A stretch of DNA of 64,000 nt from a bacterium (lineage in GTDB: Bacteria > Bacteroidota > Bacteroidia > Bacteroidales > Bacteroidaceae). The translations under genes and the position numbers were made by a program. Below are positions 12,187 through 64,000 of the stretch, one piece after another (position 1 is the first letter of the stretch; every line of letters begins with the position of its first letter). The notes beneath the pieces are model-generated. The model had not been told where the DNA came from. It saw only the letters and a program-made list of their open reading frames with translations, and searched no databases. The DNA is taken from NCBI GenBank assembly GCA_963661195.1, contig CAVLBD010000007.1, forward strand, positions 2,963-66,962, given 5' to 3'.

Positions 12187-12192
12187 TGTTTG

Positions 12193-13860: not shown

Positions 13861-13961
13861 TTGACTTTTTCTGTTGTGTGATTTTAGTTGACAAATGTTT
13901 GGCATGAAAGCAAATACCTTCAGCAAATGGCTCATCATTCATGCCTACATATTGCGAGAAA

Positions 13962-13997
13962 AGTCTTATACCGCATGTATTTATACGGCATAAGACT
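13962..13997 (-). terminator. Weak hairpin between tlpA and the barrel gene (possible attenuator or terminator)
   Basis: AGTCTTATACCG / CGGCATAAGACT with one mismatch. The minus-strand downstream run is only TTTTCTC. Confidence 0.3.
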
Positions 13998-14014
13998 TTG
14001 GATTTTACGTTGAT

Positions 14015-46634: not shown

Positions 46635-46900
46635 TTTTTGATTTAAGGAATTTATAGAACACGCCTTAAGAAAGTAAATATATTCAGAACAACAAGGCAT
46701 AAAAAAAGGGGCTCCGCTGAGTCCCAATCTTTGTTAACCTTAAATCTAATACTATGAAAAACACGTTGCAAAGTTATTGCTTTTCTGTTTAAATGCAATG
46801 TTTTGCGTGGTTTTTGTGAGTTTTTCTTTACTTTTATTGATGTACGTCAATACTTCCGTGTACGGAAACACATATATTTTGCTATAAAATACAATCATCG

Positions 46901-49325: not shown

Positions 49326-49421
49326 ATGTTATTAGATTTTAAAACAATGACAACGTTGACGATCGTAGCCTTCTTAACAGCGATTAGCTTTATAGGTTAC
49401 TTTCACAACAGAGTACATTAA
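49326..49421 (+). CDS. Candidate small membrane peptide (31 aa), not in the supplied ORF track
   Basis: ATG at 49326 to TAA at 49419-49421 encodes MLLDFKTMTTLTIVAFLTAISFIGYFHNRVH, with one TM-length hydrophobic stretch. It is bracketed by its own promoter box and terminator. It could equally be a non-coding sRNA. Confidence 0.3.
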   Translation: MLLDFKTMTTLTIVAFLTAISFIGYFHNRVH

Positions 49422-49435
49422 AGAATTGTTTTCAG

Positions 49436-49477
49436 GAGGCCGGTTTGAGTGATTCAAGTCGTCCTCTATTTTTTTTT
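49436..49477 (+). terminator. Rho-independent terminator directly after the 31-codon ORF
   Basis: GAGGCCGGTTTGA (49436-49448) pairs with TCAAGTCGTCCTC (49454-49466): 10 Watson-Crick pairs, 2 G-U pairs and 1 mismatch, with a 5-nt loop. TA plus T9 follows. Confidence 0.7.
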
Positions 49478-49532
49478 GAAGCATTTGGTAGACTAATCCA
49501 ACATGATAACTATAGTTTGCCGATGATATATA

Positions 49533-49562
49533 AGATGAGTTTTTAGGACTCATCTTTTTTTT
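49533..49562 (+). terminator. Second terminator hairpin in the spacer
   Basis: Perfect stem AGATGAGT (49533-49540) / ACTCATCT (49548-49555), followed by T7. Confidence 0.65.
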
Positions 49563-49746: not shown

Positions 49747-49754
49747 TACTTTTG
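49747..49754 (+). promoter_or_regulatory. -7 box TActTTTG upstream of the first T9SS-cargo cassette
   Basis: Exact TAnnTTTG, 131 nt upstream of the ATG at 49885. TTTG elements at 49723 and 49733 could serve as the -33 element. Confidence 0.45.
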
Positions 49755-49884
49755 CCCTTGAAATATCAAAAAGCAAGGAACGACCAATAATTAAAATCTT
49801 TTTGTGGTAATATATACAATATAACTGAAAAAGAGAAAGACAAATATAAGTTTACATTATACCAACGTTAAAAGCAAGAAGCGT

Positions 49885-51468
49885 ATGAGAAGATTTACTT
49901 TACTAAGCTTGGTAATGGCAACAGCTATTACCGCAAGTGCACAATGGAACACAAACAGTAATCCAGTACTTCTGTCTGGTGATGTGCAAGGAACCCACTC
50001 TCCAAAGGTGGTGCTTACCAATGACGGAAAAATGTATATAGCTTGGCGTACAGCGGCAAAGGTAGGCGGAGCACTTTGTTATGCTTTTCCACATTTGCAA
50101 CTTCTAGACACAGACGGCAATGCGATGTTCGGGAAAGACGGTCTTGCCGTGTCAACTCATGTGTCACCTTCGTGGACAAGTGACTATTCTCTTGTAGCAA
50201 CACCTGACGGATGTGCTATCATCAGCACTTCAGACTCTCGTTCGGAGGAGAGCGATTCCCTTGACAGATACAATACTTTTACTCCTGTTTGGTACAAGAT
50301 TAGCCAAGAACAGGATTATGTATGGGGCCTTGACGGATTGGCCTTGACAGACAGAATCAGTTCACCGCTTACCAATACATATGTTGTAGGCGATGATGTG
50401 TGGATACAAGACAATGTGTCTTCATATACTGATGTCAATTATTTCAATCGCGTCTCTGCCGATGGCACTCTTGGTTTCAGTGAATCACAGAGCATATTCG
50501 GACAGGTAATTCCAAGTTTCGGCACAGATTTTATTGTTGTAAACAGCGGTTCTGATGGTCCAGAGGCCATGCGTTATACTCGCGACTGCGGTAAAGTTTG
50601 GTCAGAGCCAGTAACTTTCGCTTCAAGCAACTATGGTGGTCACAGTCTTCATCCATATTCACTTGATTCCGACGGTAAGGGCGGTTTCTATGCAACCTGG
50701 GTAAGGAACATGGGAAGTTTCTCTCACATGATATGCACGCAGCATGTTGATGCAGATGGCGACCCAACATTTGGTCTTGATGCGATGGACGTTTATTCAA
50801 CAGAAGAACTTGACCACGACTATGCCACACAAGCAGTTGACACGAAAAACAACAAGGCTTTCGTTGTTTGGGCGATGCAAGTTGGTGGCGGAAGATATGA
50901 TTTGCGTGCCCAGCTCTTTAATCAGGAAGGTGACCGCCTTTTTGGTGATGAAGGTAAGGTTATTGCAACAAAAGATGGCGACTATGCAGGATGGGCCTTC
51001 AACAACTACGGACTTCTTCCCGTTGGTGACGGTGAATGGCTAGCATGCTATGCTGATGTGCGCGGTTGGCAGAAGGAATATCTATATGTAGAACGTTTCG
51101 ACAAAGACGGCAATAGTGTTTGGAAGAAGCAGATTGGTGAGTACGGTCGGTTTGACGATATCACTTTCCTTAAAGGCGATGACTGTTCATATGTGGTGTT
51201 CTTGACAGAAAACGAAGACGGTTACGATATATTGAAAGGTGCGCGAATCTATGACGATGGTTCATTCGAAAAAGCTAGTGACGGAATAAAAGCTCTAGAT
51301 GAAGCCGCGTCAGCATCATCTTTGGCAACGATATATAGCATAGACGGTAAGCTCGTGAAGACAGTCAAGGGCGAAAGTCTTGACAATGTTTCGCTTGACC
51401 ACGGAATGTACATCGTAACAATGAAAGATGCCAATGGCAAGATAAAGAGCGTTAAACTCAGCAAGTAA
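49885..51468 (+). CDS. Repeat-rich (beta-propeller-like) secreted protein with T9SS C-terminal domain, cassette 1 gene 1
   Basis: Signal ...ITASA|QWNT. Recurrent ~40-aa units carry D-x-D/N-G...W/Y (TNDGKMYIAW, DSDGKGGFYATW, DKDGNSVWKKQ). The CTD is ...IYSIDGKLVKTVKGESLDNVSLDHGMYIVTMKDANGKIKSVKLSK. It is a paralogue of 55659..57323. Confidence 0.65.
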   Translation: MRRFTLLSLVMATAITASAQWNTNSNPVLLSGDVQGTHSPKVVLTNDGKMYIAWRTAAKVGGALCYAFPHLQLLDTDGNAMFGKDGLAVSTHVSPSWTSDYSLVATPDGCAIISTSDSRSEESDSLDRYNTFTPVWYKISQEQDYVWGLDGLALTDRISSPLTNTYVVGDDVWIQDNVSSYTDVNYFNRVSADGTLGFSESQSIFGQVIPSFGTDFIVVNSGSDGPEAMRYTRDCGKVWSEPVTFASSNYGGHSLHPYSLDSDGKGGFYATWVRNMGSFSHMICTQHVDADGDPTFGLDAMDVYSTEELDHDYATQAVDTKNNKAFVVWAMQVGGGRYDLRAQLFNQEGDRLFGDEGKVIATKDGDYAGWAFNNYGLLPVGDGEWLACYADVRGWQKEYLYVERFDKDGNSVWKKQIGEYGRFDDITFLKGDDCSYVVFLTENEDGYDILKGARIYDDGSFEKASDGIKALDEAASASSLATIYSIDGKLVKTVKGESLDNVSLDHGMYIVTMKDANGKIKSVKLSK

Positions 51469-51481
51469 AAAACAATACTTT

Positions 51482-53890
51482 ATGGAAAGAATCATAAAAG
51501 CAAGAAAATTGATAGGCAGTGTAGCCATTGCAGCTTTCATGGGATTACTTCCTTCTGATGCCATGGCTCAAAGATACCTTACCGAAGACTTCGATTATGA
51601 AGTTGGCGACCTTTATCAACAAGGACCATGGTTGAAGTATGGTGCAGGAACGAAGACAAATACTATTAATGTGGGTGAAGGCAGCCTGACATACGAAGGT
51701 TATTCAGACAAGACCAGTGGCAACTGCGTAGCTCTTGCCAATACTAAGAGCAGTTATTCACTGCAGGCAGCCATTAAGGAAACTCCGTTGACAGAAGGTA
51801 GCGTCTATATGAGTGCTCTCATCAACGTGCAGAGTGCTGGCGACAGTAAGGATTTCCTGCAGTTTGTAAGGTCTGCCAGTGGTGGAATCGTTGACAAGGG
51901 ATATGGAATGGCTGGAGGAAGAATCGTTATAAAGGCAGGCGATACAGAAGGTACATTTAAAATAGGTATTTGTCGCACGCGCTTGACCGAGGCTTCATTC
52001 TCTTCTGAGGAATATGAACTCAACAAGACTTACCTCATAGTATTGAAATATCAATTTGTAGACGGTGACAATAATGATGCCATCTCCCTTTGGGTAAATC
52101 CGACAGACTTTGAGACTGAACCAGAAGCACTTGCCGGCTCTTCATCATTCTCATCGCAAGACATTCCTGATGTTGCAGGAATCGCTTTGACGCAGAACTC
52201 AATGAAAAATGGAACGTGGCATGACATGAAGGTAGATGCTATCCATGTGGCAGGAACATGGAGCGACCTTTTCAAAGAACCCTCTTCTGGAGACGAGCCG
52301 GAAGTCATGCAGCAGTTGCCAAATCGCAACATTGTCGTGATAGAGAACTTCACGAATACGGGTTGTGGCCCATGTGCAACATTTGCTCCCGTTCTCGATC
52401 AGGTTATCAACGAACGTCTTGGAGATGCAGTATGCATAAAGTGCCATGGTGTCTATCCAGACAGAACTGATCCATTCTACCTTGCCGAGCAAGCCAATCT
52501 TGACGATAGAATAGACTTCTACAGCATTAACTCTTATCCAAGTCTTATAGTTAACGGTTCGCAGACGCGCTATACGCTCAGCACTTCATTGCTGAACGCA
52601 ATGATAGACGGTGCAGGCGAAACGGATCAAGACTATGACATAAGTATAACCGGCAGTGTTTCCGACCATGTACTTACTGTTTCCGGTGACGTTACTGCAA
52701 GGAAAGATGTAGCCGACGCTTCTACACTTAAGCTTACCGCAGTTGCAATAGAAGAATATTACTACTCATCTTCAGGATATTCCAACGGCGAGCACGAGAT
52801 GCAGTTCGTGGCTAAGAGATATATGCCCGACGGAAAAGGTGCGGCTATTGCCGATAGTATGGAGAAAGAAAAGCCTTACCCATTCACATTCTCATGTGAT
52901 CTTAGTTCATTCTATGATGAAAGTCAACTTGGTGTTGTAGCTTATGTGCAAGACACCGTGTCAAAACTCATTGTTGCTTCGGCTTATATCCCGAAGAAGG
53001 CAAAGAGTGCCGACTATGTAAACCTGCTGCGTGTTGACGATACGCCAGACTTTATCTGTACTCCAGACTTTTACGGAAACATTGTGTTCCGCAATGATGG
53101 CGAGAATGAGCTAAAGAGTGCAACAGTAAACGTAGACGTTAATGGTGTAGTGCATACCTACTCATGGACAGGCAGCGTGTCTCGTCTTGAAAAGGTAACG
53201 TTCCCCACAGGCAACATAACCGATTTCTCTTTGTCTTCCGATGGCAGCAAGAATGTTGCAAAGGTATGGATATCTGATATCAACGGCACAGAGAATGAAA
53301 GTAATGCCGTGTATGTGAACTTCAGCAACTCAATGCAGGTAACAGGAGCGGTAAGAATGAAACTTTACACCGACAAGAAACCTGAAGAAACCACTTGGAA
53401 GATCTTTAATTCGGCAGGCGATGTAGTTGTTGAGGGTGGTCCATACACAGAGGCTCGCCACAAGTATACAGAAGACTTCAACCTTACCAGCGATGATTGC
53501 TACTCTCTTGTAATCTATGATGCAGGCGGTGACGGAATCAGCAGTACGGCTTATGGTAATGGTTACTACCAGCTTTACGAACTAGGCCGCGATGAATTGG
53601 GCAGCGAGACAATGACTAAGCTTACCCAAGGCACATTTACCAATGCGGAATGTGATATTGCTTTCAATCTTAAAGACGCAGACACAACGCTTGGCATAGA
53701 TGAAGTGAAGAAGATGAACGACGCAAATACAACAATCACCATTGTTGACCAGTCAGGAAAGACCCTTCTCAGCACTACTGTTGGCAAGCTCACAGAGAGC
53801 GACTTGCAGTCTCTTGGCAAGGGCCCACGCATCGTAAAGTTTGACGATGGCAAGCATACCTATGTTAACAAATACGTCTTCAACAGATAA
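51482..53890 (+). CDS. Large Omp28-like CxxC protein with T9SS C-terminal domain, cassette 1 gene 2
   Basis: Signal ...SDAMA|QRYL. The central segment VVIENFTNTGCGPCATFAP has its CxxC at 52364-52375, with ...QLGVVAYVQD also present. An ETTWKI...YDAGGDGI module precedes the CTD ...ITIVDQSGKTLL...GPRIVKFDDGKHTYVNKYVFNR. It starts 13 nt after the upstream gene. Confidence 0.65.
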   Translation: MERIIKARKLIGSVAIAAFMGLLPSDAMAQRYLTEDFDYEVGDLYQQGPWLKYGAGTKTNTINVGEGSLTYEGYSDKTSGNCVALANTKSSYSLQAAIKETPLTEGSVYMSALINVQSAGDSKDFLQFVRSASGGIVDKGYGMAGGRIVIKAGDTEGTFKIGICRTRLTEASFSSEEYELNKTYLIVLKYQFVDGDNNDAISLWVNPTDFETEPEALAGSSSFSSQDIPDVAGIALTQNSMKNGTWHDMKVDAIHVAGTWSDLFKEPSSGDEPEVMQQLPNRNIVVIENFTNTGCGPCATFAPVLDQVINERLGDAVCIKCHGVYPDRTDPFYLAEQANLDDRIDFYSINSYPSLIVNGSQTRYTLSTSLLNAMIDGAGETDQDYDISITGSVSDHVLTVSGDVTARKDVADASTLKLTAVAIEEYYYSSSGYSNGEHEMQFVAKRYMPDGKGAAIADSMEKEKPYPFTFSCDLSSFYDESQLGVVAYVQDTVSKLIVASAYIPKKAKSADYVNLLRVDDTPDFICTPDFYGNIVFRNDGENELKSATVNVDVNGVVHTYSWTGSVSRLEKVTFPTGNITDFSLSSDGSKNVAKVWISDINGTENESNAVYVNFSNSMQVTGAVRMKLYTDKKPEETTWKIFNSAGDVVVEGGPYTEARHKYTEDFNLTSDDCYSLVIYDAGGDGISSTAYGNGYYQLYELGRDELGSETMTKLTQGTFTNAECDIAFNLKDADTTLGIDEVKKMNDANTTITIVDQSGKTLLSTTVGKLTESDLQSLGKGPRIVKFDDGKHTYVNKYVFNR

Positions 53891-53905
53891 ACAAAGGTTT
53901 ATATA

Positions 53906-53951
53906 ATAAAAATCCGCAATGCTTTAATTCTTGAGACATTGCGGATTTTTA
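53906..53951. terminator. Bidirectional terminator between cassette 1 and the regulator gene
   Basis: Stem AATCCGCAATG (53911-53921) / CATTGCGGATT (53937-53947), flanked by AAAA and TTTT. Confidence 0.85.
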
Positions 53952-53988
53952 GTTTCCTCACTTATCAAGTGTTATATATATGTGCTAG

Positions 53989-55458
53989 TTATTCCTCTTC
54001 CGAATTGTCTGTTGGTGTCTCTGTAAGCACCAAACGTTGGTATTCAGATGGCGTCATGCCATAAACTTTCTTGAATGCTCGTATAAAGCTAGCGGCATTT
54101 TTATATCCAACCTCCTGGTATATAACCTGCATGGTGTAGTTGGCATAGTGGTCGCGGTCAGCCAGTTTATGGCATGCTTCGCGAATACGCCGTTCATTCA
54201 GTAGCGTCTTGAAATTCTTGTTGTAGTTAGCGTTAATGACATGCGAGACATACGTTGTGTTCGACTCTACTATTTCTGCCAAAGTCTGTAGATTCATGTC
54301 CGGATTGGATATTACATCCGTGTTATCTATGGCCTCATTGATACGGTTCAGCAGCTTTCGCTCGTTGTCGTCGCTTATTGTTGCTTGTGTCTTTATTTCT
54401 TGTTTCAGAATCTCTCTGTTTTGTTTCTCGCTTTCCTCCATGGCTTTTGTCTTTTCTATAAGAAGCCGTTGTGCGAGAACGAGTCTTCTGTTTTTTCTCA
54501 CGATAATCAGTGTGAGAATGGAAACGAGGATAAGGAAAAGCGCTACTCCCGTGATAATATATATCTGCCATTTTATACGTTCGTTCAGCAACTCCACTTG
54601 GTTCATGTGCACTCTGTTCTCATATTCGCTGAGAGTATATCGTGCCTTATAGAATTTCTTGATGTTGTATACAGAGTCGTTGAGACTAAAATACAAGTTT
54701 CGGTAGTGTTGTGCCGAATCATAGTTGTTAGTCTGTGCATAAGTATCTGCCAGCATCTTGTAGGCATTCACCAATAGTTCACCGCTTTTTATCTTGCGTG
54801 CCATTGCCACGCAGCTATCGCCAAGTGCGAGCGCTTCGCGGTTGCGGCCGCATCTTACATAAATGTTGCCAATCTCGCTCATTTGGAACAAGACGTACAG
54901 CGAGTCCATGTTGTTTTTTATAGCATATTGCATGGCACGCCGGTGCTCCTTTATGGCTTCCTCATGCCGCTGTTCAGTGTTCAATACTCGTGCGCGGCAA
55001 TAAATAGCATAGTAGTCATGTTTTACCAAGTCAGCTGTAACCTTCAGATTTTCGTATTCCTTAAGGTATTTTCTTGCCATTGCGGCATCGTTCATTCTAG
55101 TATGGCAAAATATCAAGTTGCAGATAAACGACGATAGCAACAGATTGTTGCCAATTTTATGTGCAGCGTTGTAGCCTTTGGTATAATAGTAGAGGCTTGA
55201 ATTGTTATCGCCGAAGGTATCATACACGTTGCCTATGTATCCCGTGCAGGCAATGTAGTTCTTTTTGTTGTTTTCCTTCTCTGCCATTGCCATAGCCTTT
55301 ATGTAAAGTTCAAGAGCCTCAGGATACTGCTCGCTGTAGTATTTCTTGTCGGCCATATCTCTCATTGTAACGGAGTTCATCTCTCCCTTTCCAAAGGCAA
55401 AAGGAGCATTGAAGAACATGAAAATAAAAGAAATGGCAAATATATATATGTATTTCAT
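53989..55458 (-). CDS. Transmembrane one-component regulator: periplasmic TPR domain, TM helix, cytoplasmic AraC-type HTH
   Basis: The protein has an N-terminal signal or anchor followed by about 280 aa of TPR-like repeats (YYSEQYPEALELYIKA..., NAYKMLADTYAQTNNYDSAQHY). A TM helix (IYIITGVALFLILVSILTLIIV) and a coiled coil come next. The C-terminus is an AraC HTH: ...LAEIVESNTTYVSHVINANY...IYQEVGYKNAASFIRAFKKVYGMTPSEY. Confidence 0.85.
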   Translation of the reverse strand: MKYIYIFAISFIFMFFNAPFAFGKGEMNSVTMRDMADKKYYSEQYPEALELYIKAMAMAEKENNKKNYIACTGYIGNVYDTFGDNNSSLYYYTKGYNAAHKIGNNLLLSSFICNLIFCHTRMNDAAMARKYLKEYENLKVTADLVKHDYYAIYCRARVLNTEQRHEEAIKEHRRAMQYAIKNNMDSLYVLFQMSEIGNIYVRCGRNREALALGDSCVAMARKIKSGELLVNAYKMLADTYAQTNNYDSAQHYRNLYFSLNDSVYNIKKFYKARYTLSEYENRVHMNQVELLNERIKWQIYIITGVALFLILVSILTLIIVRKNRRLVLAQRLLIEKTKAMEESEKQNREILKQEIKTQATISDDNERKLLNRINEAIDNTDVISNPDMNLQTLAEIVESNTTYVSHVINANYNKNFKTLLNERRIREACHKLADRDHYANYTMQVIYQEVGYKNAASFIRAFKKVYGMTPSEYQRLVLTETPTDNSEEE

Positions 55459-55477
55459 CTTGTGCTTCTTTCTTCTG

Positions 55478-55485
55478 CAAAGATA
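55478..55485 (-). promoter_or_regulatory. -7 box (TAtcTTTG on the minus strand) upstream of the TPR/AraC regulator
   Basis: Plus-strand CAAAGATA, 20 nt upstream of the ATG at 55458, which implies a very short leader. Confidence 0.4.
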
Positions 55486-55601
55486 ATATTATTCAACTGA
55501 AACAGCCCTTGAATGTAGAAAAATGAAAGAAAAACGTTCATATTTTATAAAATGTAAATGCATTGCGGCATATATATAGCACCCCTTACATACGTTTGGC
55601 T

Positions 55602-55609
55602 TACCTTTG
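55602..55609 (+). promoter_or_regulatory. -7 box TAccTTTG upstream of the second T9SS-cargo cassette
   Basis: Exact TAnnTTTG, 50 nt upstream of the ATG at 55659. Confidence 0.45.
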
Positions 55610-55658
55610 CAACAGTTCGAAGATGAACGTCAATTCAATATTCTAAAATTTTCTGCTT

Positions 55659-57323
55659 ATGAAAAAGATTTCTACTCTCTTTGTAGCGTTAGCCTTTATG
55701 GCAATTCCGGCTTCAGCTCAGTGGCAACCTAGCGACACAGACTATAAAATAGTAGCACAGGACAGCCTTTATGATCAAGGCGGACTGAAGACCGTGCGTA
55801 CATCCGATGGCAAAACCGTGTTGACATGGTACAAACACTCCGTAGGTTTGAAGAGCACCCACCCAGCCAGTGGCTACCATCTTTACATGCAGACATATGA
55901 TGCCGCAGGCAATGCTCTCTGCGGAAAGGAAGGAAAGGAAATTTCCGGTCACCGCACACGTACATGGCTTACAGACTATAGCACTAAGCTTTCAGATGAT
56001 GGCAAGGTCTATATCTCCTATTCCGATGCGAGAAACGACTCGCTTAAGGAAAATGTTGAGAACTTCATTTATTGTTATACTCCCGAAGGCACGCCATTAT
56101 GGAGTGCAGACGGCGTGAAAATAAGCAGTGTAACGAAAAACGCTCAAAGTGTTGTGGAAGATGTCCAACCACTTCTTTGTCTTAGTGGTTCCAACATATA
56201 CTCTAAGTTGGCTCATACAGAAACATATAACGTAAAGGCCGACTCTACAAACTGGACACCTAGTCCTTGGTTCCCCGATGATGAAATGCCAGACTCAGTG
56301 AGTGTAAGCGACTATAACTATCAGATTATGCGCTACAACGCCGACGGAACAGAAGCATGGGCAGCGCCTCTTGTCGTAGACTACGAATCGGCATGGTTCT
56401 ATCCCGCACCCAACGGAAATTTCTATCTTATTTATGTAAATAGCGGCTCAGGCTTCAGTGCTCGTCTCATTGACGCTGACGGCAAGGACGTATGGGAAAA
56501 TCCTGTAGTCGTTGAGAAAGAGTGCATCAGCGGTGGTCTGTACACAAGCGAACCGACCGTGGTAAGCGATGGCAATGGTGGGCTTTATATGGCATATCGT
56601 ACTTTGCTTTCTTGGACAGGCTATTGTGCAGTGAATCGTCTTACACCTGACGGCAAGGTCTATTCAGAGGGATTCCTGCCCAACGGAACGACGGACGGAA
56701 ACACAGACTCTTCTGCAGAGGTGGCTGTAAATGGCGACAAGACCTTTGTGGCGTGGGGATACGTTGACACAACCAGTGCACACACACTCTGGGTTAACCA
56801 GCTTGACATAAACGGCGACTACACTTGGGAGGGTGACAGCTTGCTTGGCTACGCATACGACCAGAATGAGATGTGGGGATGTACGGCAGTAAAAATTATT
56901 CCCCAGTCTGACGGATGGGTTCTGCTTTACGCAAATTCTCAGAGCTACAGCGCTGCAAACTTCTACGCATGTAAAATAGGTACTGACGGAAAGACTATTT
57001 GGAAGCGTCAGCTAGCTCAAGACGGATTTAAGCTGAATTCATACACTGTTGACTACGACGACAAATATGCATACTTCTTCTATACTTGTTCAAAGGACAA
57101 GGACGAGAACTACAAAGAGATACCTGGACCAGGCGGTCTGCGCGTGATGTGCATCGACATAACAGGCGGTGATGCAACAGGCATCAACAAGTCTAATATC
57201 GTTGACAACAACGCAACCAAGGAAATATTTAATGCTCAGGGTATGCGTGTGACAGATATGAATGCCAGTGGTCTCTACATAATAAAGGAGAACGGCAAGA
57301 CGCATAAAGTTTTCTCAAAATAA
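55659..57323 (+). CDS. Repeat-rich (beta-propeller-like) secreted protein with T9SS C-terminal domain, cassette 2 gene 1
   Basis: Signal ...IPASA|QWQP. It has the same D-x-D/N-G...W repeat style (TSDGKTVLTWYK, DADGKDVWENP, GTDGKTIWKRQ). The CTD is ...IFNAQGMRVTDMNASGLYIIKENGKTHKVFSK. Confidence 0.65.
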   Translation: MKKISTLFVALAFMAIPASAQWQPSDTDYKIVAQDSLYDQGGLKTVRTSDGKTVLTWYKHSVGLKSTHPASGYHLYMQTYDAAGNALCGKEGKEISGHRTRTWLTDYSTKLSDDGKVYISYSDARNDSLKENVENFIYCYTPEGTPLWSADGVKISSVTKNAQSVVEDVQPLLCLSGSNIYSKLAHTETYNVKADSTNWTPSPWFPDDEMPDSVSVSDYNYQIMRYNADGTEAWAAPLVVDYESAWFYPAPNGNFYLIYVNSGSGFSARLIDADGKDVWENPVVVEKECISGGLYTSEPTVVSDGNGGLYMAYRTLLSWTGYCAVNRLTPDGKVYSEGFLPNGTTDGNTDSSAEVAVNGDKTFVAWGYVDTTSAHTLWVNQLDINGDYTWEGDSLLGYAYDQNEMWGCTAVKIIPQSDGWVLLYANSQSYSAANFYACKIGTDGKTIWKRQLAQDGFKLNSYTVDYDDKYAYFFYTCSKDKDENYKEIPGPGGLRVMCIDITGGDATGINKSNIVDNNATKEIFNAQGMRVTDMNASGLYIIKENGKTHKVFSK

Positions 57324-57338
57324 TCAATTCGTTATTGC

Positions 57339-57379
57339 GAAGCGTATGGAATGTAGCGACGTTCCGTGCGCTTCTTTTT
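57339..57379 (+). terminator. Moderate hairpin plus T5 between the two genes of cassette 2
   Basis: GAAGCG (57339-57344) / CGCTTC (57369-57374) with an inner GGAA/TTCC pairing, followed by TTTTT. Confidence 0.4.
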
Positions 57380-57398
57380 ATTACTTGCTTAAATAATC

Positions 57399-59138
57399 AT
57401 GAAAAGACTATTCCTTGACATACTTATGCTATTTGCGGTATGCTCCGTAGCGCCAGCACACACCATCGGAGTAGGTAACGTGAATAGGCAACCGGGCGAG
57501 CAGACAGAACTTCAAGCCACGGGAAAGACAAACTGCAGTGCTGCCGTAAGGCTAGATGCATCTAAATTTGTGCGTTATGCTGGAAACAGCATTAAGACGG
57601 TGCGCGTTTCGTTGCCGGCAACCAAGCTTTTTGTCGATTCGTTAGTGGTGTGGGTGCGCTCGTCTCTTGATGGCAATAATCTGTCGCAAGGAAAAATTAC
57701 TCGCTTTGCCGACGATTATCCAAATCTGTCGGAGGGCTGGAACGAAGTGTCGCTTGAAAGTCCTGTAGAGCTGACCGAAGCAACAGGAGAACTCTATGTG
57801 GGCTACACATACTATCAGCGCACGAAAGTCTGTGCAACCCGGTGGGCAAAGCGTGAAGACGCCGCGGGCTCTTATGTAAAACTAGGCGGCGATGCAGCTT
57901 GGGAGGAGAAGAAAGGCTATGACCTAGCTATTGAAGCCGGCATTGACGGCAGTGCCATGCCTGCCAACGACGTGTGGCTCATGGGAGCGCGCGGGCTTAT
58001 CTCGGATGACGGAACACGCCGCATAGAGGCACGCCTCTATAACCGTGGACAGCAGCAGGCCACAAGTCTGCGTTTCAAGATGGAAGGATCGCAGTATAGT
58101 AACTCCACACTTCAGTATGCTGACATTGCTCCCGACTGTCTTGACACAATAGTTTTCGATATTAAGGGCGCAGAGGCATTGGCCGTTAACTCAAAGTTGA
58201 ATTTGGAACTGGATGAAGTGAACGGCAAAGCCGATGCCTATCCTGACGACAATAAGGCAATTTGCCTGTTCAACTACTTGCGTATCGTGCTCATTGAGGA
58301 GTTTACCACGGAGCAATGCCCCAATTGTCCGCGTGTGGCAGAGTATTTGCACGAGCTTCTTGAAAGCTCTGATGTGATGATGAATATGGCTGTGGTATGC
58401 CATCATTCGGGCTATCACACCGATTCCTTTACTACGCAAGCAGATTTGGACTACGAGTGGTTCTATAATGCCGATGGTGCTACATACGCTCCCGCGCTGA
58501 TGTATAACCGTATGTCGCTGGGCAAATCTCCCGTGACGGGGGCTTACAGTAAAGATGTCGTAGAACAGTATATAAAGGCTATTGCAAACCAAGAGTCTTC
58601 TCTTGCTTTGGTTGCTGAGGCTGCCGTTTCTGAAGACAACGCCACGATTACCGTTACCGTAACGGGCAAGCGTCTGCAAGCATATGGGAACACAGAGCAG
58701 CGGATAACCGTGTTCTTGACTGAAGACAATGTGCTTTCTGTCGATGGTCAGGCAGGTAGCGGCACCGACACCTACTATCATCAGCACGTGATGCGCCGTG
58801 TAAATTCCACTTGGGGCGAACCTCTTACTTGGAATGGCGATGATTTCCAATATACATGTACTTTCAGCGTTGATCCTACATGGAAACCATCTGACTTGAA
58901 GGTCGTGGCATCGGTAGGCGATTATGACAGCACTTCGCCAAATAACTGCCAGATAGAGAATAATGCCGTTGCCATTCCCGAGGGTTGGACTGACGGTATT
59001 CACAGAACTTCCACAGACAAAGGTGTGGCAAAGCCTGTGGCTTACTTCACAATGGACGGACAATTGCTGAAACAACCTGCCCGTGGGGTAACGCTTGTGA
59101 AGATGAGCGACGGAACTGTAAGGAAGGTGAAAATGTAG
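57399..59138 (+). CDS. Multi-domain Omp28-like CxxC protein with T9SS C-terminal domain, cassette 2 gene 2
   Basis: LIEEFTTEQCPNCP has its CxxC at 58317-58328. CHHSGYHTD, YYHQHVMRR and WKPSDLKVVASV are co-linear with the 640-aa protein at 8670..10592. The CTD is ...AYFTMDGQLLKQPARGVTLVKMSDGTVRKVKM. Confidence 0.65.
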   Translation: MKRLFLDILMLFAVCSVAPAHTIGVGNVNRQPGEQTELQATGKTNCSAAVRLDASKFVRYAGNSIKTVRVSLPATKLFVDSLVVWVRSSLDGNNLSQGKITRFADDYPNLSEGWNEVSLESPVELTEATGELYVGYTYYQRTKVCATRWAKREDAAGSYVKLGGDAAWEEKKGYDLAIEAGIDGSAMPANDVWLMGARGLISDDGTRRIEARLYNRGQQQATSLRFKMEGSQYSNSTLQYADIAPDCLDTIVFDIKGAEALAVNSKLNLELDEVNGKADAYPDDNKAICLFNYLRIVLIEEFTTEQCPNCPRVAEYLHELLESSDVMMNMAVVCHHSGYHTDSFTTQADLDYEWFYNADGATYAPALMYNRMSLGKSPVTGAYSKDVVEQYIKAIANQESSLALVAEAAVSEDNATITVTVTGKRLQAYGNTEQRITVFLTEDNVLSVDGQAGSGTDTYYHQHVMRRVNSTWGEPLTWNGDDFQYTCTFSVDPTWKPSDLKVVASVGDYDSTSPNNCQIENNAVAIPEGWTDGIHRTSTDKGVAKPVAYFTMDGQLLKQPARGVTLVKMSDGTVRKVKM

Positions 59139-59173
59139 GGTACAAGAAGAAATAACAGTCTAATTGAATAACC

Positions 59174-59221
59174 AAAGCTTCAGCTATTGCAGTAACTTGC
59201 GGCAAAGGCTGAAGCTTTTTT
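59174..59221. terminator. Bidirectional terminator between the T9SS-cargo locus and the glycan operon
   Basis: Stem AAAGCTTCAGC (59174-59184) / GCTGAAGCTTT (59208-59218), then TTTT. Confidence 0.8.
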
Positions 59222-59233
59222 GTGCTTATACCA

Positions 59234-60277
59234 TTAGACATCAAGTGTCTCAATGGCATTTTTAATGGCAAACGATGCATAATGCCCGGCTTGCAGTCGG
59301 CGACTCTCGCGCAAGACGTTTGCCTTCATGCGTGAAAACTCCTCAATGGTCATGTTTTTCATTATGCCGTCAAGTTCTTCAAGGCTATTGATGCAAATGC
59401 CAATGCCGTGGGACGAGACGAAGTTGGCCAAGGCAGCTTGCTTCCATATAATGACGGGCAGCCCGCTACGCAGATAGAATGAAGTCTTGTGTGGGTTGTT
59501 TAGCTTAAGATATTCTCCGAAATTGCCCTCGCATGAGGAAACGGAAGAACCATCCCACACCAGTCCGAAATCGCCTTTTACGTTGCTTATGAAGTCATCG
59601 CTTTGTGCAAAGCCGTAATAATGGAAATGTTCTTTTCCCTTAACCGCGTTCATGTCAAAGTTACTTCCATAAAGTGCCACGTCATACGACTTGATATATG
59701 CGCCCCATTCATACAGGAACGCATTTTTGCGCTGCGTCAGAGCTCCAGCATACACCACGGTGAAACTTTCGCCTTTTCCTTTTGTTGAGGCTTCGCCCGC
59801 GGGTAGCGGTGCGGAAGAGAGGTAGTCAAAGATGCTAAGTTCTGAGAGAATGGCTTTGCAGCCATGGGAATGTAGCCATTCCCGCATCTTTTCGTTGTGG
59901 GCTATCACTATGTCCGAGTGGTTCAGGCGGTCTATCTCTTGCTCAATAGTGAGAGCCTTGCGCCGAAAACTGCCGAGGTCATGGATTATGGTTATTATTT
60001 TCGCACCGCGGAGGTGTGCCATGTTACATACAAATGTGTAGTATTTCTTCAGCGGATACTGAAGTATCAAGACATCTCCTTTGTGTAATGCAAACGGAGC
60101 TTTTATCACTCCGGCAAGGTTGCGCAGGAAATGTACAACCGTGTTGCGGCTTGTGGAAAACGGTAAGCCGATGTTCTTGCAGTGAACCTCTTTCTCGGCA
60201 ATTTTCTCAATGTCGCTCTTAGCCTTGTTGCCGGCGCTGTTCAAGCCTTTGTAATTGCGTGAGATGTAGTAATACAT
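59234..60277 (-). CDS. WbbI-like glycosyltransferase (beta-1,6-galactofuranosyltransferase family)
   Basis: The start is set at MYYYISRNYKG (Met24 of the listed ORF), which removes the overlap with the upstream LicD gene. The block FGLVWDGSSVSSCEGNFGEYLKLNNPHKTSFYLRSGLPVIIWKQAALANFV closely parallels the E. coli K-12 WbbI sequence as I remember it. Confidence 0.65.
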   Translation of the reverse strand: MYYYISRNYKGLNSAGNKAKSDIEKIAEKEVHCKNIGLPFSTSRNTVVHFLRNLAGVIKAPFALHKGDVLILQYPLKKYYTFVCNMAHLRGAKIITIIHDLGSFRRKALTIEQEIDRLNHSDIVIAHNEKMREWLHSHGCKAILSELSIFDYLSSAPLPAGEASTKGKGESFTVVYAGALTQRKNAFLYEWGAYIKSYDVALYGSNFDMNAVKGKEHFHYYGFAQSDDFISNVKGDFGLVWDGSSVSSCEGNFGEYLKLNNPHKTSFYLRSGLPVIIWKQAALANFVSSHGIGICINSLEELDGIMKNMTIEEFSRMKANVLRESRRLQAGHYASFAIKNAIETLDV

Positions 60278-60302
60278 GGTAGATATGTTTGGAACTTTCT
60301 GT

Positions 60303-61121
60303 TTATGGGATGTTCTTGTTGTCGCGGTATGGGCAGTCAAGGTCAAGGAAATGGAAGTTATGCTGCCGTTGTTGCGAATGTTTGGGTATGGTCATATAGT
60401 CGCCGTATTTCCTTGTCAGATAGGTGTCGTAGTTTTCCACTCCGAGTAATGTTGTGCCTTCGAAATCATACGGCGTAGGATTGCCCAATATTTCCTTTCC
60501 CATTGTGCCGTGCGAGCCGTCGTCATAGTCTGCCACAAGCTGGCAGGAGTCAAAGTCGTAGTTGGTCAGCAGTTCGCGAATGCGGCGTTGCACGCCTTGC
60601 ATGGTGTAGAGTCTGCGGCAGAGCAGCGGAATCCATGAACTAGGCCCATGCCCATGCTTGAAAGGGTCGCGGTGTATGAGATACAACAGGCGCTTATAGT
60701 ATTCGTATCGGGCGAAATGTAGCTTGCGTAAGACAAAGTTGTTTGGCACACCATCGATGGGAAAAACGTCTATATATATGCCTCCCACGTATTTCAAGTG
60801 CATTCTTTCAACAAGAGTCGTTGAGGCATCCTGTATCTTGCCGAACGGCAACGGATATGTATTGTCGTCTTCTGCGCATACGAACTCGAACTGTGTGGGC
60901 AACCATTCGTGGGCGTGTGCTACGAGAGCATTATAGTCTGCTCGCGGCATGGCTATGTCGAGATCGTCGTCCCAGGGGATGAAACCTTTGTGGCGTACTG
61001 CGCCAATCATTGTTCCCGCCCAGATGAAGTATCTGAGTCCATGTTCTGCGCATGCTGTGTCTACAGCTTTTACTATGCGCAGTATGCGCTTGTGCAGTTC
61101 GTCGATATCATAGCTTGCCAT
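60303..61121 (-). CDS. LicD-family phosphotransferase (CDP-alcohol phosphotransfer to glycan)
   Basis: Carries the LicD signature ...YFIWAGTMIGAVRHKGFIPWDDDLDIAMPRADY and ...YIDVFPIDG. Confidence 0.85.
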   Translation of the reverse strand: MASYDIDELHKRILRIVKAVDTACAEHGLRYFIWAGTMIGAVRHKGFIPWDDDLDIAMPRADYNALVAHAHEWLPTQFEFVCAEDDNTYPLPFGKIQDASTTLVERMHLKYVGGIYIDVFPIDGVPNNFVLRKLHFARYEYYKRLLYLIHRDPFKHGHGPSSWIPLLCRRLYTMQGVQRRIRELLTNYDFDSCQLVADYDDGSHGTMGKEILGNPTPYDFEGTTLLGVENYDTYLTRKYGDYMTIPKHSQQRQHNFHFLDLDCPYRDNKNIP

Positions 61122-61147
61122 AATTCAGAGGGATGATGTTTACGTTG

Positions 61148-61876
61148 TTAGAATATATTTTCTGGTATGAGCCGCTTTGCCTGGTTGAAGTCCTCCACTG
61201 TGTCGAGCTCAATGGAAAAGATATCGGTTGTGTCAACCACCTTGAACGTATGTCCTTGCGGTATAAGTCGTTCAAAGGCGCGCTCGTAGAATATGTCCAC
61301 GAGCTTTTCTTTCTCTATCATCACTTCCAGTTCATTGAACAGTGCGGCACTGTATGGTGCAAGCATCTTTTCTATGCCTACAGACTCCCCGATGGCATGC
61401 TCTATGCTGCACACTTTGCTTATTTCAACTACGCGGTTTTCTTCGTCGGTTATAACCTTTATCTCCTCTTCCCCAAGTTTGTGGCGGTTTACGGCCAGGC
61501 AGGTTCCGTCAGCGTCAAGCAGGTGGCGAATTATAGCCCCGTCGAAGAGTATGTCGCTGTCAAGCAGCAGAAAATCGCGTCCTGCCACTTCGTGGCGTGC
61601 AAGCCAAAGGGAGTAGATGTTGTTCGTGGTCTGATAATCTTCGTTGTCTATGAAGGTGACCTTCATGTCAGCGTAGTTCTTGTTGACGAAGTCGCGTATC
61701 ATGTTGCCACGGTAGCCAGTAACGACAACGAGCTCGTTGATACCAGCAGCCTTAATGCTGTCGATAGTACGCTGAAGCAGGCAGCGTGTTCCTACTGTAA
61801 GCAGACATTTGGGGAGGCTGTCGGTAAGTGGGCGCAGGCGTGAGGCCATTCCTGCGGCAAGAATCAGTGCTATCAT
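61148..61876 (-). CDS. LicC-like nucleotidyltransferase (phospho-alcohol cytidylyltransferase family)
   Basis: The start is set at MIALILAAGMASRLRPLT (Met14 of the listed ORF), which forms an ATGA overlap with the stop of the upstream PLP-enzyme gene (61873-61876). TNNIYSLWLA and ...IFSIELDTVEDF parallel pneumococcal LicC (YNNFYSLYL, IYEIDSVQDY). Confidence 0.8.
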   Translation of the reverse strand: MIALILAAGMASRLRPLTDSLPKCLLTVGTRCLLQRTIDSIKAAGINELVVVTGYRGNMIRDFVNKNYADMKVTFIDNEDYQTTNNIYSLWLARHEVAGRDFLLLDSDILFDGAIIRHLLDADGTCLAVNRHKLGEEEIKVITDEENRVVEISKVCSIEHAIGESVGIEKMLAPYSAALFNELEVMIEKEKLVDIFYERAFERLIPQGHTFKVVDTTDIFSIELDTVEDFNQAKRLIPENIF

Positions 61877-62937
61877 AGGTCGAACTGTTTTGCCGTGTTG
61901 AGTATCACATCGCAAACGAGACGGTTTTGCTCGCGTCTGCCAAGTGTTATGCGCATGTGGGTGTTGATATCCGGCTCGTTCATGAACTTAACCTTGTAGC
62001 TTTGTTTTGCAAACTTTTTTTGTAGGGCTTCCTTCATCTCGATGGGATATTTGATAAGTATGAAGTTTGCGATGGATTTGTATACCTTGAAGCCAGGAAG
62101 AGCACCTATTTCTGCAGTATACATCTGCCGCGCTTCTTCCATAACGTTGGCAATTTGGCGGTAGTGGGCATCAGACTTTATTGCGGCAATGGCAACTTCT
62201 TCAGACAGACGGTCGTAGCCTAGATATTTGTTGGCGTAGCGGCTGAAACGCTGCATCGTGTCGCTGTTTCCTATATAGCCAAATCCCCAGCGCAATCCTG
62301 GCAGTCCGTAGAATTTTGACAACGTGCGGCAGAAAATGATGTTGGGGTATTTGCTTATCATCTCTTTTATATACGATATGTCTGATGTGACGTAAGATGC
62401 ATAAGCCTCGTCTACGAGCATTACGGATGTCTCGGGAATCATCTTCACGAGGCGTTCAAGTTCATCGGGTGTAAGCCCGTTGCCTGTTGGGTTGTTGGGC
62501 GAAGCTACGAGAAGAATCTTTGGGTTTTCTTTCTCAATCATCTCCTTCAGTCCGTCGAAATCGTAGGCAAAGGAGTTTTCCGTTTCGTAGACAGGGTATT
62601 GATGTGTTCTTCCGTTTACTTCATCGGCGATAGATTTGTAGTACCACCATGAGAATTTAGGTATGAACATCGTCTTGTTTCCGTCTTCCTGCGTAAGGAA
62701 GAAGTGTACTGCCATCTTGAGAAGATCCTCTGCGCCATAGCCCAATATAATCTGTTTCTCGTCGATGCCGTACTTTTCTGCCATGAATTCAGAAAAGATA
62801 CTTTTCTTTCCTTGGTCGTATATGCGGGTATAGAAAGCCAGTTTCTTCGCATCGAAGTTCTTTAAGGCGTCCATAACCTCTTGTGAAGGGCTGAAATTGA
62901 ATTCATTCCTGTCAAGATAATTTAAGATTGTTTGCAT
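61873..62937 (-). CDS. Class I/II PLP-dependent aminotransferase/decarboxylase (HisC/CobD-like)
   Basis: SPNNPTGN, VDEAYASY and RTLSKFYGLPGLRWGF (PLP-lysine context) are present. The 354-aa size is typical of histidinol-phosphate aminotransferase and threonine-phosphate decarboxylase relatives. Confidence 0.8.
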   Translation of the reverse strand: MQTILNYLDRNEFNFSPSQEVMDALKNFDAKKLAFYTRIYDQGKKSIFSEFMAEKYGIDEKQIILGYGAEDLLKMAVHFFLTQEDGNKTMFIPKFSWWYYKSIADEVNGRTHQYPVYETENSFAYDFDGLKEMIEKENPKILLVASPNNPTGNGLTPDELERLVKMIPETSVMLVDEAYASYVTSDISYIKEMISKYPNIIFCRTLSKFYGLPGLRWGFGYIGNSDTMQRFSRYANKYLGYDRLSEEVAIAAIKSDAHYRQIANVMEEARQMYTAEIGALPGFKVYKSIANFILIKYPIEMKEALQKKFAKQSYKVKFMNEPDINTHMRITLGRREQNRLVCDVILNTAKQFDL

Positions 62938-62959
62938 TTCTTTCGTTGTATTTTAGTTG

Positions 62960-62967
62960 CAAAGTTA
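62960..62967 (-). promoter_or_regulatory. -7 box (TAacTTTG on the minus strand) upstream of the PLP-enzyme gene
   Basis: Plus-strand CAAAGTTA, 23 nt upstream of the ATG at 62937. Confidence 0.45.
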
Positions 62968-63052
62968 ATATAAAAAACTGAGTAAGGCAGTGAGTGCCAA
63001 TGTATATTGTTGTTGTTATGCCGTGAATTGCGCTTTGCAAAGGTTGCGGGGC

Positions 63053-64000
63053 TTATTTCTTCAGCTTTTTTACCAGCCGGCTGAAGGCAGAGCGGCGATA
63101 ATCTTTCCTTACCTTTGGCAGCAGCTCGCGGTAGGAATGGTTGGTGTCGAAGATGAGTGTTCCGTGGTAGTTCTTCTCTTTTACCGGTGTCATGTAGTTG
63201 TCGCCATATTGAGTTCTCAGGAATAAAGCGTATTCCTTAGGCACAGGCACCTTGATGTTCTCAAAGTCAATCCATACTGTGTGCTCGAAGATATGTTTCG
63301 GAAACATAATGTCATCGCCGCTAAACGATAGCTCTGCCCAACATTCGGCTTCTTCGTCTTTTGTGCTTCTTAGCAGTTCTTCGCTTTTTCTGTATATGTC
63401 GGCCCAGCCTTTTCTCCACACTTCATATTTGCAATGGTATTTGCGGAAAATCAGTCCCAGTCTTCCCGAGGCAAGAATGGCAGTGTTTTTTGCCTTCAGG
63501 AAACGTTGGGTGTGGCGTGTGCGACGAATGATGTCACGTCGTCGCTGCGGGTCGGTTGGCGCGTTGTCAAGGACGAAGATGTCGATGAATATGCCTTGGT
63601 TGAATGGTTGGAAAGAGTCGGAGGGACGTATTGCCGCGGTGTCGCTGCGCCGCAGTTGTGCATGTCCGCGGAAATAGTCTTTGTCGTTGTATGCAGTCTG
63701 CATGAAATATGGTTCATGGAAATGTGCGGGTGCGAGCTGAATCATACGGTCGTAGTCAGCGCGTGGCATCATAACATCCACGTCATCGTCCCACGGAATG
63801 AACCCTTTGTGGCGCACTGCTCCGAGCATAGTGCCACCGTCAACCCAACAACGCAGATTGTTTTCAATGCAGAAATCGATGAAATGCGACAGGAGGTCTA
63901 TTTCTATAGCCCATACTTGTTTCAGCTTGTGCGTAACGATAGTGCCGTCTCTTTCTTCTTCTCTTGTGTTGAATGATTTGTTGCCATGGCCTATTGGCGT
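63053..64000 (-). CDS. Second LicD-family phosphotransferase, 5' end outside the window
   Basis: The listed ORF starts at an internal Met (63829). Hand translation of the same frame upstream stays open to base 64000. It reads ...HKLKQVWAIEIDLLSHFIDFCIENNLRCWVDGGTMLGAVRHKGFIPWDDDVDVMMPRADY, the canonical LicD N-terminal region. Confidence 0.85.
   Translation of the reverse strand, partial: TPIGHGNKSFNTREEERDGTIVTHKLKQVWAIEIDLLSHFIDFCIENNLRCWVDGGTMLGAVRHKGFIPWDDDVDVMMPRADYDRMIQLAPAHFHEPYFMQTAYNDKDYFRGHAQLRRSDTAAIRPSDSFQPFNQGIFIDIFVLDNAPTDPQRRRDIIRRTRHTQRFLKAKNTAILASGRLGLIFRKYHCKYEVWRKGWADIYRKSEELLRSTKDEEAECWAELSFSGDDIMFPKHIFEHTVWIDFENIKVPVPKEYALFLRTQYGDNYMTPVKEKNYHGTLIFDTNHSYRELLPKVRKDYRRSAFSRLVKKLKK

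Follow-up and report, generated by a model that had tools for sequence, protein, structure and literature searches.

Two anciently diverged versions of a Bacteroidales beta-propeller/Omp28 gene pair flank a transmembrane TPR-AraC regulator

A 64,000-nucleotide stretch of a Bacteroidaceae genome (GenBank assembly GCA_963661195.1, contig CAVLBD010000007.1, positions 2,963 to 66,962; hereafter the window) carries two plus-strand cassettes of two genes each, P1-P2 and P4-P5, with a regulator gene between them on the opposite strand. The locus holds two versions, long diverged, of a gene pair that is conserved in Bacteroidales, one on either side of a transmembrane regulator. The first gene of the pair encodes a Sec-exported member of a large, unnamed beta-propeller family for which there is no Pfam model. 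The second gene encodes an HBP35/Omp28-related thioredoxin-fold protein, in which a core with an almost invariant CxxC motif is followed by an Omp28 beta-sandwich. The locus had been described earlier from the letters of the DNA alone (the sequence-only reading), and the coordinates given there for the five open reading frames (ORFs) were matched exactly by ORF calling (Table 1). Domains were called by scanning with Pfam and TIGRFAM/NCBIfam profiles against curated cut-offs, and structures were studied by AlphaFold2 (AF2) modelling followed by Foldseek comparison with the PDB.

Table 1. Genes, promoter boxes, hairpins and other features of the window (TPR, tetratricopeptide repeat; L007-L009, the three closest genomes)
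Feature	Position	Strand	Length	Description
P1	49885-51468	+	527 aa	secreted beta-propeller, first gene of cassette 1
P2	51482-53890	+	802 aa	thioredoxin-fold/Omp28 protein, second gene of cassette 1
Regulator	53989-55458	-	489 aa	TPR/transmembrane/AraC protein, between the cassettes
P4	55659-57323	+	554 aa	beta-propeller family, first gene of cassette 2
P5	57399-59138	+	579 aa	N-terminally extended HBP35 homologue, second gene of cassette 2
-7 box TACTTTTG	49747..49754	+		cassette 1; Bacteroidetes-type, within conserved block TTTGCAATAA-TATTACTTTTGCC
-7 box TATCTTTG	55478..55485	-		regulator promoter, about 20 nt upstream of the ATG; kept in L007-L009
-7 box TACCTTTG	55602..55609	+		cassette 2
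Second box TACGTTTG	55591	+		upstream of P4
Bidirectional terminator-like hairpin	53907..53951	both		A-run, 14-16 bp stem, T-run; between convergent P2 and regulator
Intercistronic hairpin	57339..57374	+		16-bp stem, T-run; between P4 and P5
PDDEXK_2 ORF	7405-8406	+		PD-(D/E)XK transposase family, 77.7 bits; adjoins the second Omp28 cluster
P5 paralogue	8670-10592	-	640 aa	CPQC; 28% identity over full length
ORF	10615-11298	-	227 aa	
Omp28 lipoprotein	11374-12186	-		CVNC
DUF6029 gene	12193-13938	-		
AhpC/TSA redoxin	14015-14539	-		
FopS small RNA (RF04319)	46698-46764	-		Bacteroidetes; Rfam 75 bits, gathering cut-off 56

The products of the first genes, P1 and P4, had been taken for diverged paralogues, and pairwise alignment of the two proteins bears this out (26% identity over 490 amino acids, E 1e-22). 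The AF2 model of P1 (predicted local distance difference test, pLDDT, 84.7; predicted template modelling score, pTM, 0.80) is all-beta, with a propeller of about 7-8 blades followed by a type A sorting domain for type IX secretion (by the T9SS) at residues ~478-527. In the Pfam scan P1 had no match besides this sorting domain and P4 had none at all. When the P1 model was compared with the PDB, Foldseek found generic propellers only (CylK, sialidases, lectins, lyases), all with template modelling (TM) scores of 0.42 or lower, and an enzyme identity for P1 on the basis of its fold was rejected. The family is large: with E <= 1e-30 as the limit, a full search with a hidden Markov model (HMM) yielded 1,085 cluster representatives, and with E <= 1e-10 the number was 7,145; "hypothetical protein" was the sole source name among the 32 closest database relatives of P1. 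As read from the hydrophobic N-termini, signal peptides are predicted to end between ASA and QW in P1 and P4, between AMA and QR in P2 and between APA and HT in P5; the N-terminal ~17-20 residues had low pLDDT in both the P1 and the P5 model.

The second gene had been read as encoding an Omp28-like CxxC protein. Both P2 and P5 pass the Pfam Omp28 profile (PF11551, gathering cut-off 34.9), P5 with 60.1 bits and P2 marginally with 35.3 bits, and in both the thioredoxin fold, which precedes the Omp28 sandwich, starts with the CxxC motif (FTNTGCGPC in P2, FTTEQCPNC in P5). CGPC, the variant found in P2, is that of canonical thioredoxin. The 640-residue P5 paralogue encoded in the window has CPQC, the Omp28 lipoprotein of the window CVNC, and the Paraprevotella clara protein 00502, discussed below, shares CPNC with P5. 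The CxxC motif is kept in 96 of the 98 thioredoxin/Omp28 modules collected from all loci. The NCBIfam model "Omp28-related selenoprotein" is matched by P2 and P5 alike, and the use of selenocysteine within a family is usually a sign of a redox-active site. The proposal that P2 and P5 are paralogues applies to this common thioredoxin-fold/Omp28 core but not to the whole length of the proteins, of which just 233 amino acids could be aligned (23% identity, pairwise E 0.4).

P2 is made up of an N-terminal domain of ~270 residues, the thioredoxin-fold/Omp28 core with the CGPC motif (283-502, with thioredoxin profile matches at residues 274-322), a beta-rich region of ~230 residues (502-740) and a tail with a sub-threshold sorting domain. 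Its residues 1-290 are 49% identical to the product of a separate 320-amino acid gene found in loci L001 and L012, where this gene has a C-terminal module of its own and is placed between the propeller gene and a 545-amino acid Omp28-like gene. As judged by this match, P2 is a fusion of two cluster members, which argues that the products work together. The domain gain that had been suspected in P2 is therefore a gene fusion in part (the first ~290 residues); P2 also has the ~230-residue region, which, like P2 residues 1-273 and the N-terminal region of P5, gave no match in the Pfam scan.

In the AF2 model of P5 (pLDDT 87.9) two N-terminal beta-sandwiches (23-293) are followed by a thioredoxin-like alpha/beta domain with the CPNC motif (297-400), the Omp28 beta-sandwich (402-525), a disordered linker and a three-strand module (546-578). 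Sequence matches of P5 in the PDB were 2r2c (Porphyromonas gingivalis Omp28, E 1.5e-9) and 5y1a (HBP35, E 0.003, residues 293-556). Foldseek ranked 5y1a first (E 2.9e-14, TM 0.61 on the target, 325 columns), seven orders of magnitude ahead of the rest of the list. Homologues of P5 carry the NCBI name "Omp28-related outer membrane protein". HBP35 of P. gingivalis (PGN_0659/PG0616) reduces insulin disulfides in vitro in a manner dependent on C48/C51 (PMC2907840). The T9SS exports it to the cell surface, where it is attached to anionic lipopolysaccharide (A-LPS) (PMC2907840, PMC3120885). Since the activities of HBP35 are described, the sequence-only reading was mistaken about the second gene in stating that neither family had a known function; the first gene stays with an unnamed propeller family.

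P5 resembles HBP35 in having a thioredoxin fold with CxxC, an Omp28-type beta-sandwich and a (predicted) C-terminal T9SS signal. The two proteins differ in that P5 has two additional N-terminal beta-sandwich domains (~275 amino acids) and a much shorter C-terminal signal, and their identity is only about 19%. P2 departs from HBP35 by its fused N-terminal domain and by the ~230-residue region without family match. Neither a propeller partner nor a TPR-AraC regulator of HBP35 is mentioned in PMC2907840 or PMC3120885. P2 and P5 are related to P. gingivalis Omp28 through PF11551, and P5 also through its match to 2r2c; however, classical Omp28 is a lipoprotein of ~270 amino acids, like the one encoded in the window at 11374-12186, whereas P2 and P5 are multidomain proteins without lipobox and with predicted C-terminal sorting signals.

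Conservation of the pair, which the sequence-only reading had proposed to check, was surveyed by a scan with one genome per species, followed by ORF calling and iterated HMMs, which gave 79 loci. Where the identity to P1 was at least 60% (11 loci), an Omp28-like gene was adjacent on the same strand in 10 loci and a TPR-AraC regulator was present in 10; in the eleventh locus a single 320-amino acid gene separates the propeller and Omp28-like genes. At 29-43% identity (39 mid-distance loci) the Omp28-like gene was adjacent on the same strand in 31. Thus, the Omp28-like gene directly adjoins the propeller gene in 41 of the 50 Bacteroidales loci, and the adjacency spans the range from about 95% to about 30% identity, with gaps down to 12-21 nt where measured; in the window the P1-P2 gap is 13 nt. 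Gene order was reversed in 26 of the 31 mid-distance pairs. Most of the reversed pairs are rumen Prevotellaceae loci (L004, L020-L056), in which the propeller gene is preceded by the gene of an Omp28-like partner of ~960 amino acids. The partner in L004, the only one studied closely, contains two tandem thioredoxin/Omp28 modules, with CGPC and then CDPC. Orthologues of P1 and P2 at 62-65% identity were found in L010-L017. These loci, the next closest (60-65% identity), all belong to Prevotella or Alloprevotella and include that of the cultured strain Alloprevotella tannerae ATCC 51259 (L013, 60%). In L013 (12101-13746) the P2 orthologue is split into ORFs of 132 and 363 amino acids; the split may be due to a frameshift or an assembly error, or may mark a pseudogene. 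The locus has no TPR-AraC regulator but contains another two Omp28-like genes, upstream and on the opposite strand.

Among the loci found, the two-cassette layout is restricted to L007-L009, which are 85-96% identical (P1: 96% in L007, 85% in L009). No close relatives of P4 and P5 appeared in the P1-based scan, probably because the peptide patterns of the scan do not fit P4. A direct search with P5 returned many full-length homologues. In L091 and L092 a minus-strand regulator gene is followed by genes of 548 and 577 amino acids; in L093 and L094 genes of 549 and 584 amino acids are followed by a convergent regulator gene. The identities to the window proteins are 52% (L091) and 47% (L093) for P4, 55% (L091) and 46% (L093) for P5, and 48-49% for the regulators of these two loci. 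The sequence-only reading had regarded the cassettes as an old and maintained duplication. The divergence is indeed old, but a locally duplicated cassette does not fit, because each subtype stands alone elsewhere with its own regulator; thus, the window juxtaposes two ancient cassette subtypes around one regulator. A recent local duplication was rejected, as single-cassette orthologues of P4 and P5 at 47-55% identity occur elsewhere, compared with the 26% between P1 and P4. The second cassette subtype may have arisen by an old duplication or by lateral acquisition. As a side observation, P5-like or related Omp28 genes recur near genes for Peptidase_M6 (immune inhibitor A-like) proteins, in L095 (474-11716), L001 (13-3827) and L086 (22261-23792). 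In L095 two M6 peptidase genes enclose the Omp28-like gene, and a TPR-AraC regulator gene is found ~7.8 kb upstream, where the locus ends. In the P. clara locus L086 an M6 peptidase gene, likewise at the edge, follows 00502 at a distance of ~8.5 kb downstream.

The architecture that had been proposed for the regulator (TPR domain, one transmembrane helix, AraC-type helix-turn-helix, HTH) fits both the profile scores and the hydropathy scan. The scores were 65 bits for TPR_12 (cut-off 30.1), 63.9 for HTH_18 (33.6) and 32 for HTH_AraC (26.6). Hydrophobic segments were found at residues 4-22 (signal peptide or anchor) and 297-321 (transmembrane), the latter followed by RKNRR; the TPR domain (~30-290) is predicted to be periplasmic and the AraC-type HTH (393-475) cytoplasmic. 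In its anchor, TPR domain, single transmembrane segment and cytoplasmic HTH_18, and in the divergent orientation of its gene relative to a putative target operon, the protein is reminiscent of ToxR-like membrane-anchored AraC/XylS one-component regulators. The comparison with ToxR concerns topology alone. The regulator is present in the cassette-2-type loci L091-L094 as well as in the close loci mentioned above, and its orthologues adjoining the cassettes in L011, L091 and L093 are 48-50% identical to it.

The TAnnTTTG boxes noted earlier at 49747 and 55602 are present, and they are kept in L007-L009 while the flanks diverge; CTTA(C/A/T)CTTTGCAA at the cassette 2 promoter is likewise kept in these genomes. 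Taken alone the motif is weak evidence, with 77 TAnnTTTG matches in the window compared with 56 +/- 8 expected from shuffles. A minus-strand box belongs to the regulator itself, so the 200-bp gap between the regulator gene and P4 is a genuine divergent promoter region, as had been supposed. Compared with the window and L007, L008 and L009 have an insertion of ~100 nt between the regulator gene and the P4 orthologue. It falls in the 5' untranslated region of the latter, on the downstream side of the conserved -7 box. The bidirectional terminator of the sequence-only reading was recovered as well: the hairpin between P2 and the regulator gene folds on either strand (-22.4 kcal/mol, z -8.2 on the plus strand; -19.9 kcal/mol, z -6.3 on the minus strand), and its stem is kept in L007-L009, with stem bases that differ in L009.

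The hairpin between P4 and P5 (-25.4 kcal/mol, z -5.2) had been overlooked. It is kept in L007-L009 and is not present between the P4 and P5 orthologues of L091 and L093, where the gaps are 21 and 12 nt. It is probably a partial terminator, an attenuator or an RNA-stability element. No plus-strand TAnnTTTG occurs between 55850 and 57563, and a separate promoter of this type for P5 was rejected, as the P4-P5 gap contains none. With no plus-strand box between the hairpin and P5, expression of P5 probably depends on read-through. The gap between the enolase gene and P1 (49255-49560) contains a separate TACCTTTG box at 49255, a 31-codon hydrophobic ORF at 49327-49422 (MLLDFKTMTTLTIVAFLTAISFIGYFHNRVH), which may encode a small membrane peptide or a leader, and then terminator-like hairpins at 49441-49461 and 49532-49556.

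All four cassette proteins had been thought to end in T9SS sorting domains. At the curated cut-off this holds for P1 only (TIGR04183, cut-off 23: 27.6 bits with the whole protein, 31.5 bits with the C-terminal 95 amino acids) but not for the sub-threshold P2 or for P4 and P5, which have no match. Instead of a full domain, P4, P5 and many of their relatives end in a conserved module of ~45-50 amino acids, TGI...YY.L.G..L..P.KGLNIVK..DGT..KV. When the C-terminal 80 amino acids were compared by hhalign, the P5-type and P4-type modules, which belong to otherwise unrelated families, matched with 99.2% probability (E 2.5e-19). The P4-type module matched the P1-type sorting domain with 94% (E 1.6e-7) and the P5-type module with 76% (E 2.2e-5). 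By these profile comparisons the module of P4 and P5 is kin to sorting domains at the profile level only, with the terminal D/E-motif strands kept. Export of HBP35 requires its last 22 residues, which comprise the D/E motifs, and the upstream A-C motifs were judged dispensable for export of an HBP35 fusion of green fluorescent protein with the C-terminal domain (PMC3120885). Taking into account both the profile kinship to the P1-type domain and the HBP35 precedent, a short C-terminal T9SS signal in P4 and P5 is plausible.

The other relative for which activities are described is 00502 of P. clara. 00502 and 00509 are T9SS cargo proteins, both of which are required for recruiting trypsin to the cell surface and for promoting its autolysis; effects on host immunoglobulin A (IgA) and on viral infection are reported in the same study (PMC9477747). 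The word "thioredoxin" is absent from the main text of that paper, and CxxC is unmentioned there. We located the 00502 gene in L086 by means of the published tryptic peptides, and the assignment was confirmed by the published cloning primer, which matches L086 10070-10089 exactly. The protein (1,263 amino acids) consists of an N-terminal propeller, Big_5 domains, a thioredoxin/Omp28 module with CPNC and a sorting domain. It has in common with the pair described here a propeller, the same CxxC module and a (predicted) sorting domain; in P. clara the function at the surface takes both T9SS cargo proteins. The difference is that propeller and Omp28 module are in one chain with Big_5, whereas here they are encoded by separate genes; from its domain architecture, 00502 would unite in one chain the two activities that are separate at our locus. 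No ORF of the 00502 type (propeller, Big_5, Omp28, sorting domain, ~1,260 amino acids) was found at the locus. P5 aligned with 00502 (P0033) at 35% identity over 84 amino acids around the CxxC (E 1e-6), and P2 barely aligned. The 00502-family loci (L086, L088-L090) contained no homologue of the P1 propeller domain; the two matches to the P1 profile in L090 fall on a 222-amino acid ORF and on an Omp28-like protein, not on a propeller. Furthermore, the 10 kb on either side of 00502 in L086 contain no called regulator gene. The resemblance to 00502 is one of architecture, not of membership. The 00509 gene is not within L086 and lies beyond its end. The 617-amino acid cargo gene beside 00502 was rejected as 00509, since its C-terminus differs from the primer-encoded KKMMVK, and L087 was rejected as the 00509 locus, since its match to the r00509 primer in the metagenome scan is an AT-rich chance match.

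Putting these results together, we propose, with about as much confidence for as against, that the locus encodes a sensor-controlled, T9SS-displayed module for ligand capture and thiol redox chemistry, with P1 and P4 as the propellers and P2 and P5 as the CxxC proteins. The four cassette proteins would cross the outer membrane by type IX secretion and attach to the cell surface, P1 through its bona fide sorting domain, P2 through a weak one, and P4 and P5 through shortened signals that keep the terminal D/E-motif strands. The TPR domain of the regulator would sense an envelope or periplasmic cue, upon which the regulator would activate the promoter of the divergent P4-P5 unit and perhaps that of P1-P2. 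The hairpin of cassette 2 would lower transcription of P5 relative to P4. More speculatively, the propeller may act as the ligand-binding partner on the surface, and the CxxC protein may reduce or exchange disulfides on a captured extracellular protein substrate, as HBP35 does in vitro.

Several observations weigh against this proposal. Nothing is known to supply reducing power at the cell surface, and the CxxC could therefore be a structural disulfide or a ligand of metal or heme. Of the cassette proteins other than P1, P2 stays below the cut-offs (TIGR04183 16.5-19.5 bits, cut-off 23; Pfam sorting domain 19.4, cut-off 27), P4 and P5 had no C-terminal match to the curated T9SS sorting-domain models even when the last 95 amino acids were scanned alone, and the C-terminus of the P5 model has three strands only, not a full Ig-like sorting domain. 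In the 29 loci with identities of at most 28% or with partial matches, which are mostly from other phyla of the Fibrobacteres-Chlorobi-Bacteroidetes (FCB) group and from distant Bacteroidales, the Omp28-like partner was adjacent on the same strand in one. The TPR-AraC regulator was found in none of these 29 loci and in none of the 39 mid-distance loci; its lack from all of the latter shows that the regulation is a clade-specific add-on. Shared k-mers upstream of P1 and P4 were not above shuffled controls, and a common operator for the two cassette promoters was rejected. Fusions of propeller and Omp28 module were sought in the top 150 family representatives and in P0001-P0032, with none found, and this "Rosetta-stone" line of evidence was dropped. 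Finally, comparison of the P1-family propeller with that of the 00502 family by hhalign gave 76% over 70 columns, which fell to 31% over 48 columns when deeper profiles were used, and the match was not accepted as a sign that the two propellers are homologous.

In a rather unlikely alternative, the neighbours are surface proteins (adhesins or antigens, for example) that share their regulation but work independently of each other, so that adjacency reflects nothing more than common regulation or timing of secretion and the CxxC is structural. It would agree with the frequent clustering of T9SS cargo genes, the occurrence of P5-like genes next to other cargo, e.g. the M6 peptidases in L095, the flips of gene order between clades and the lack of propeller-Omp28 fusions noted above. 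However, adjacency with short gaps over so wide a range of identities, the retention of CxxC (including the canonical CGPC) in nearly all modules and the fusion of P2 with a third cluster member speak against it. Heme or iron acquisition, which we consider distinctly unlikely, would have P2 and P5 serve mainly to bind hemin at the surface as HBP35 does, the propellers help in capturing a hemoprotein, and the regulator answer heme or iron limitation. P5 has HBP35 as its closest structural and sequence relative, and HBP35 is a hemin-binding protein whose deletion makes growth slower when hemin is depleted; the same authors, however, judged a specific activator of hbp35 under hemin depletion unlikely (PMC2907840). 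Moreover, there is no TonB-dependent receptor, hmu/hus-type gene or Fur-type element at the locus, and the feature that is invariant across the family is the CxxC.

A role in the recruitment of host proteases, in which the surface proteins would bind trypsin-like proteases and promote their autolysis in the manner of Paraprevotella 00502/00509, appears very unlikely. It can point to the fact that 00502 is an Omp28-related T9SS cargo with the same CxxC module as P5 and acts with a second T9SS cargo (PMC9477747), and to the cluster of AhpC/TSA, DUF6029 and Omp28 genes which flanks 00502 in P. clara and is also in the window. Against it are the different architecture of P2 and P5, which at 802 and 579 amino acids contrast with the 1,263 amino acids and Big_5 domains of 00502, and the lack of detectable homology between the propellers, along with the lack of a P1 propeller homologue in the 00502-family loci. 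In addition, the authors of the 00502 study proposed the Ig-like domains, not the Omp28 part, as possible trypsin-binding sites (PMC9477747).

It is conceivable, though in our view quite improbable, that the pair represents, split into separate genes, an extracellular thiol-disulfide machine that is widespread in Bacteroidales and regulated by a sensor. In this machine the propeller would capture disulfide-rich host or dietary proteins (proteases, IgA, mucins), and the surface thioredoxin module would destabilise them by reducing their disulfides. If so, the same chemistry would underlie the destruction of trypsin by Paraprevotella 00502, and electrons might be delivered across the outer membrane by the cluster of AhpC/TSA, DUF6029 and Omp28 genes. 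Bacteroidales of gut, mouth and rumen abound in Omp28-related T9SS cargo proteins, and the only studied members that we found are HBP35 and 00502. The present analysis shows that the CxxC thioredoxin/Omp28 module is habitually encoded beside a large unnamed beta-propeller family and, in the Prevotella/Alloprevotella branch, additionally beside a dedicated transmembrane TPR-AraC sensor, which defines a three-part unit with the putative roles of sensor, binder and redox protein. The invariant CxxC, on which the 00502 study is silent, is a candidate catalytic feature. If disulfide chemistry does take place at the surface, it would represent a distinctive route by which commensals process host proteins; otherwise there is still a gain in annotation, namely a name for the second gene, a family definition for the first and a short variant of the T9SS signal that is overlooked by current HMMs.

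Elsewhere in the window, the Omp28-family genes at 8670-10592 and 11374-12186 had been overlooked in the sequence-only reading. They belong to the five-gene cluster at 8670-14539, whose gene order is repeated beside P. clara 00502 (L086 4217-9830); in L090 most of this order, from the DUF6029 gene on, is found beside a 00502-family gene. The cluster, which is separate from the cassettes but probably related to them, connects an exported thiol peroxidase/redoxin, as well as a DUF6029 protein, with the Omp28 family. The FopS match sits between a 202-amino acid ORF and a gene for a low-molecular-weight phosphotyrosine phosphatase. Downstream of P5, the minus strand of 59234-63829 carries a weakly GT4-like gene, two LicD-family genes, a MobA/NTP-transferase-like gene and a gene for a class I/II aminotransferase, and this region looks like a locus for surface-glycan decoration (lic-type).

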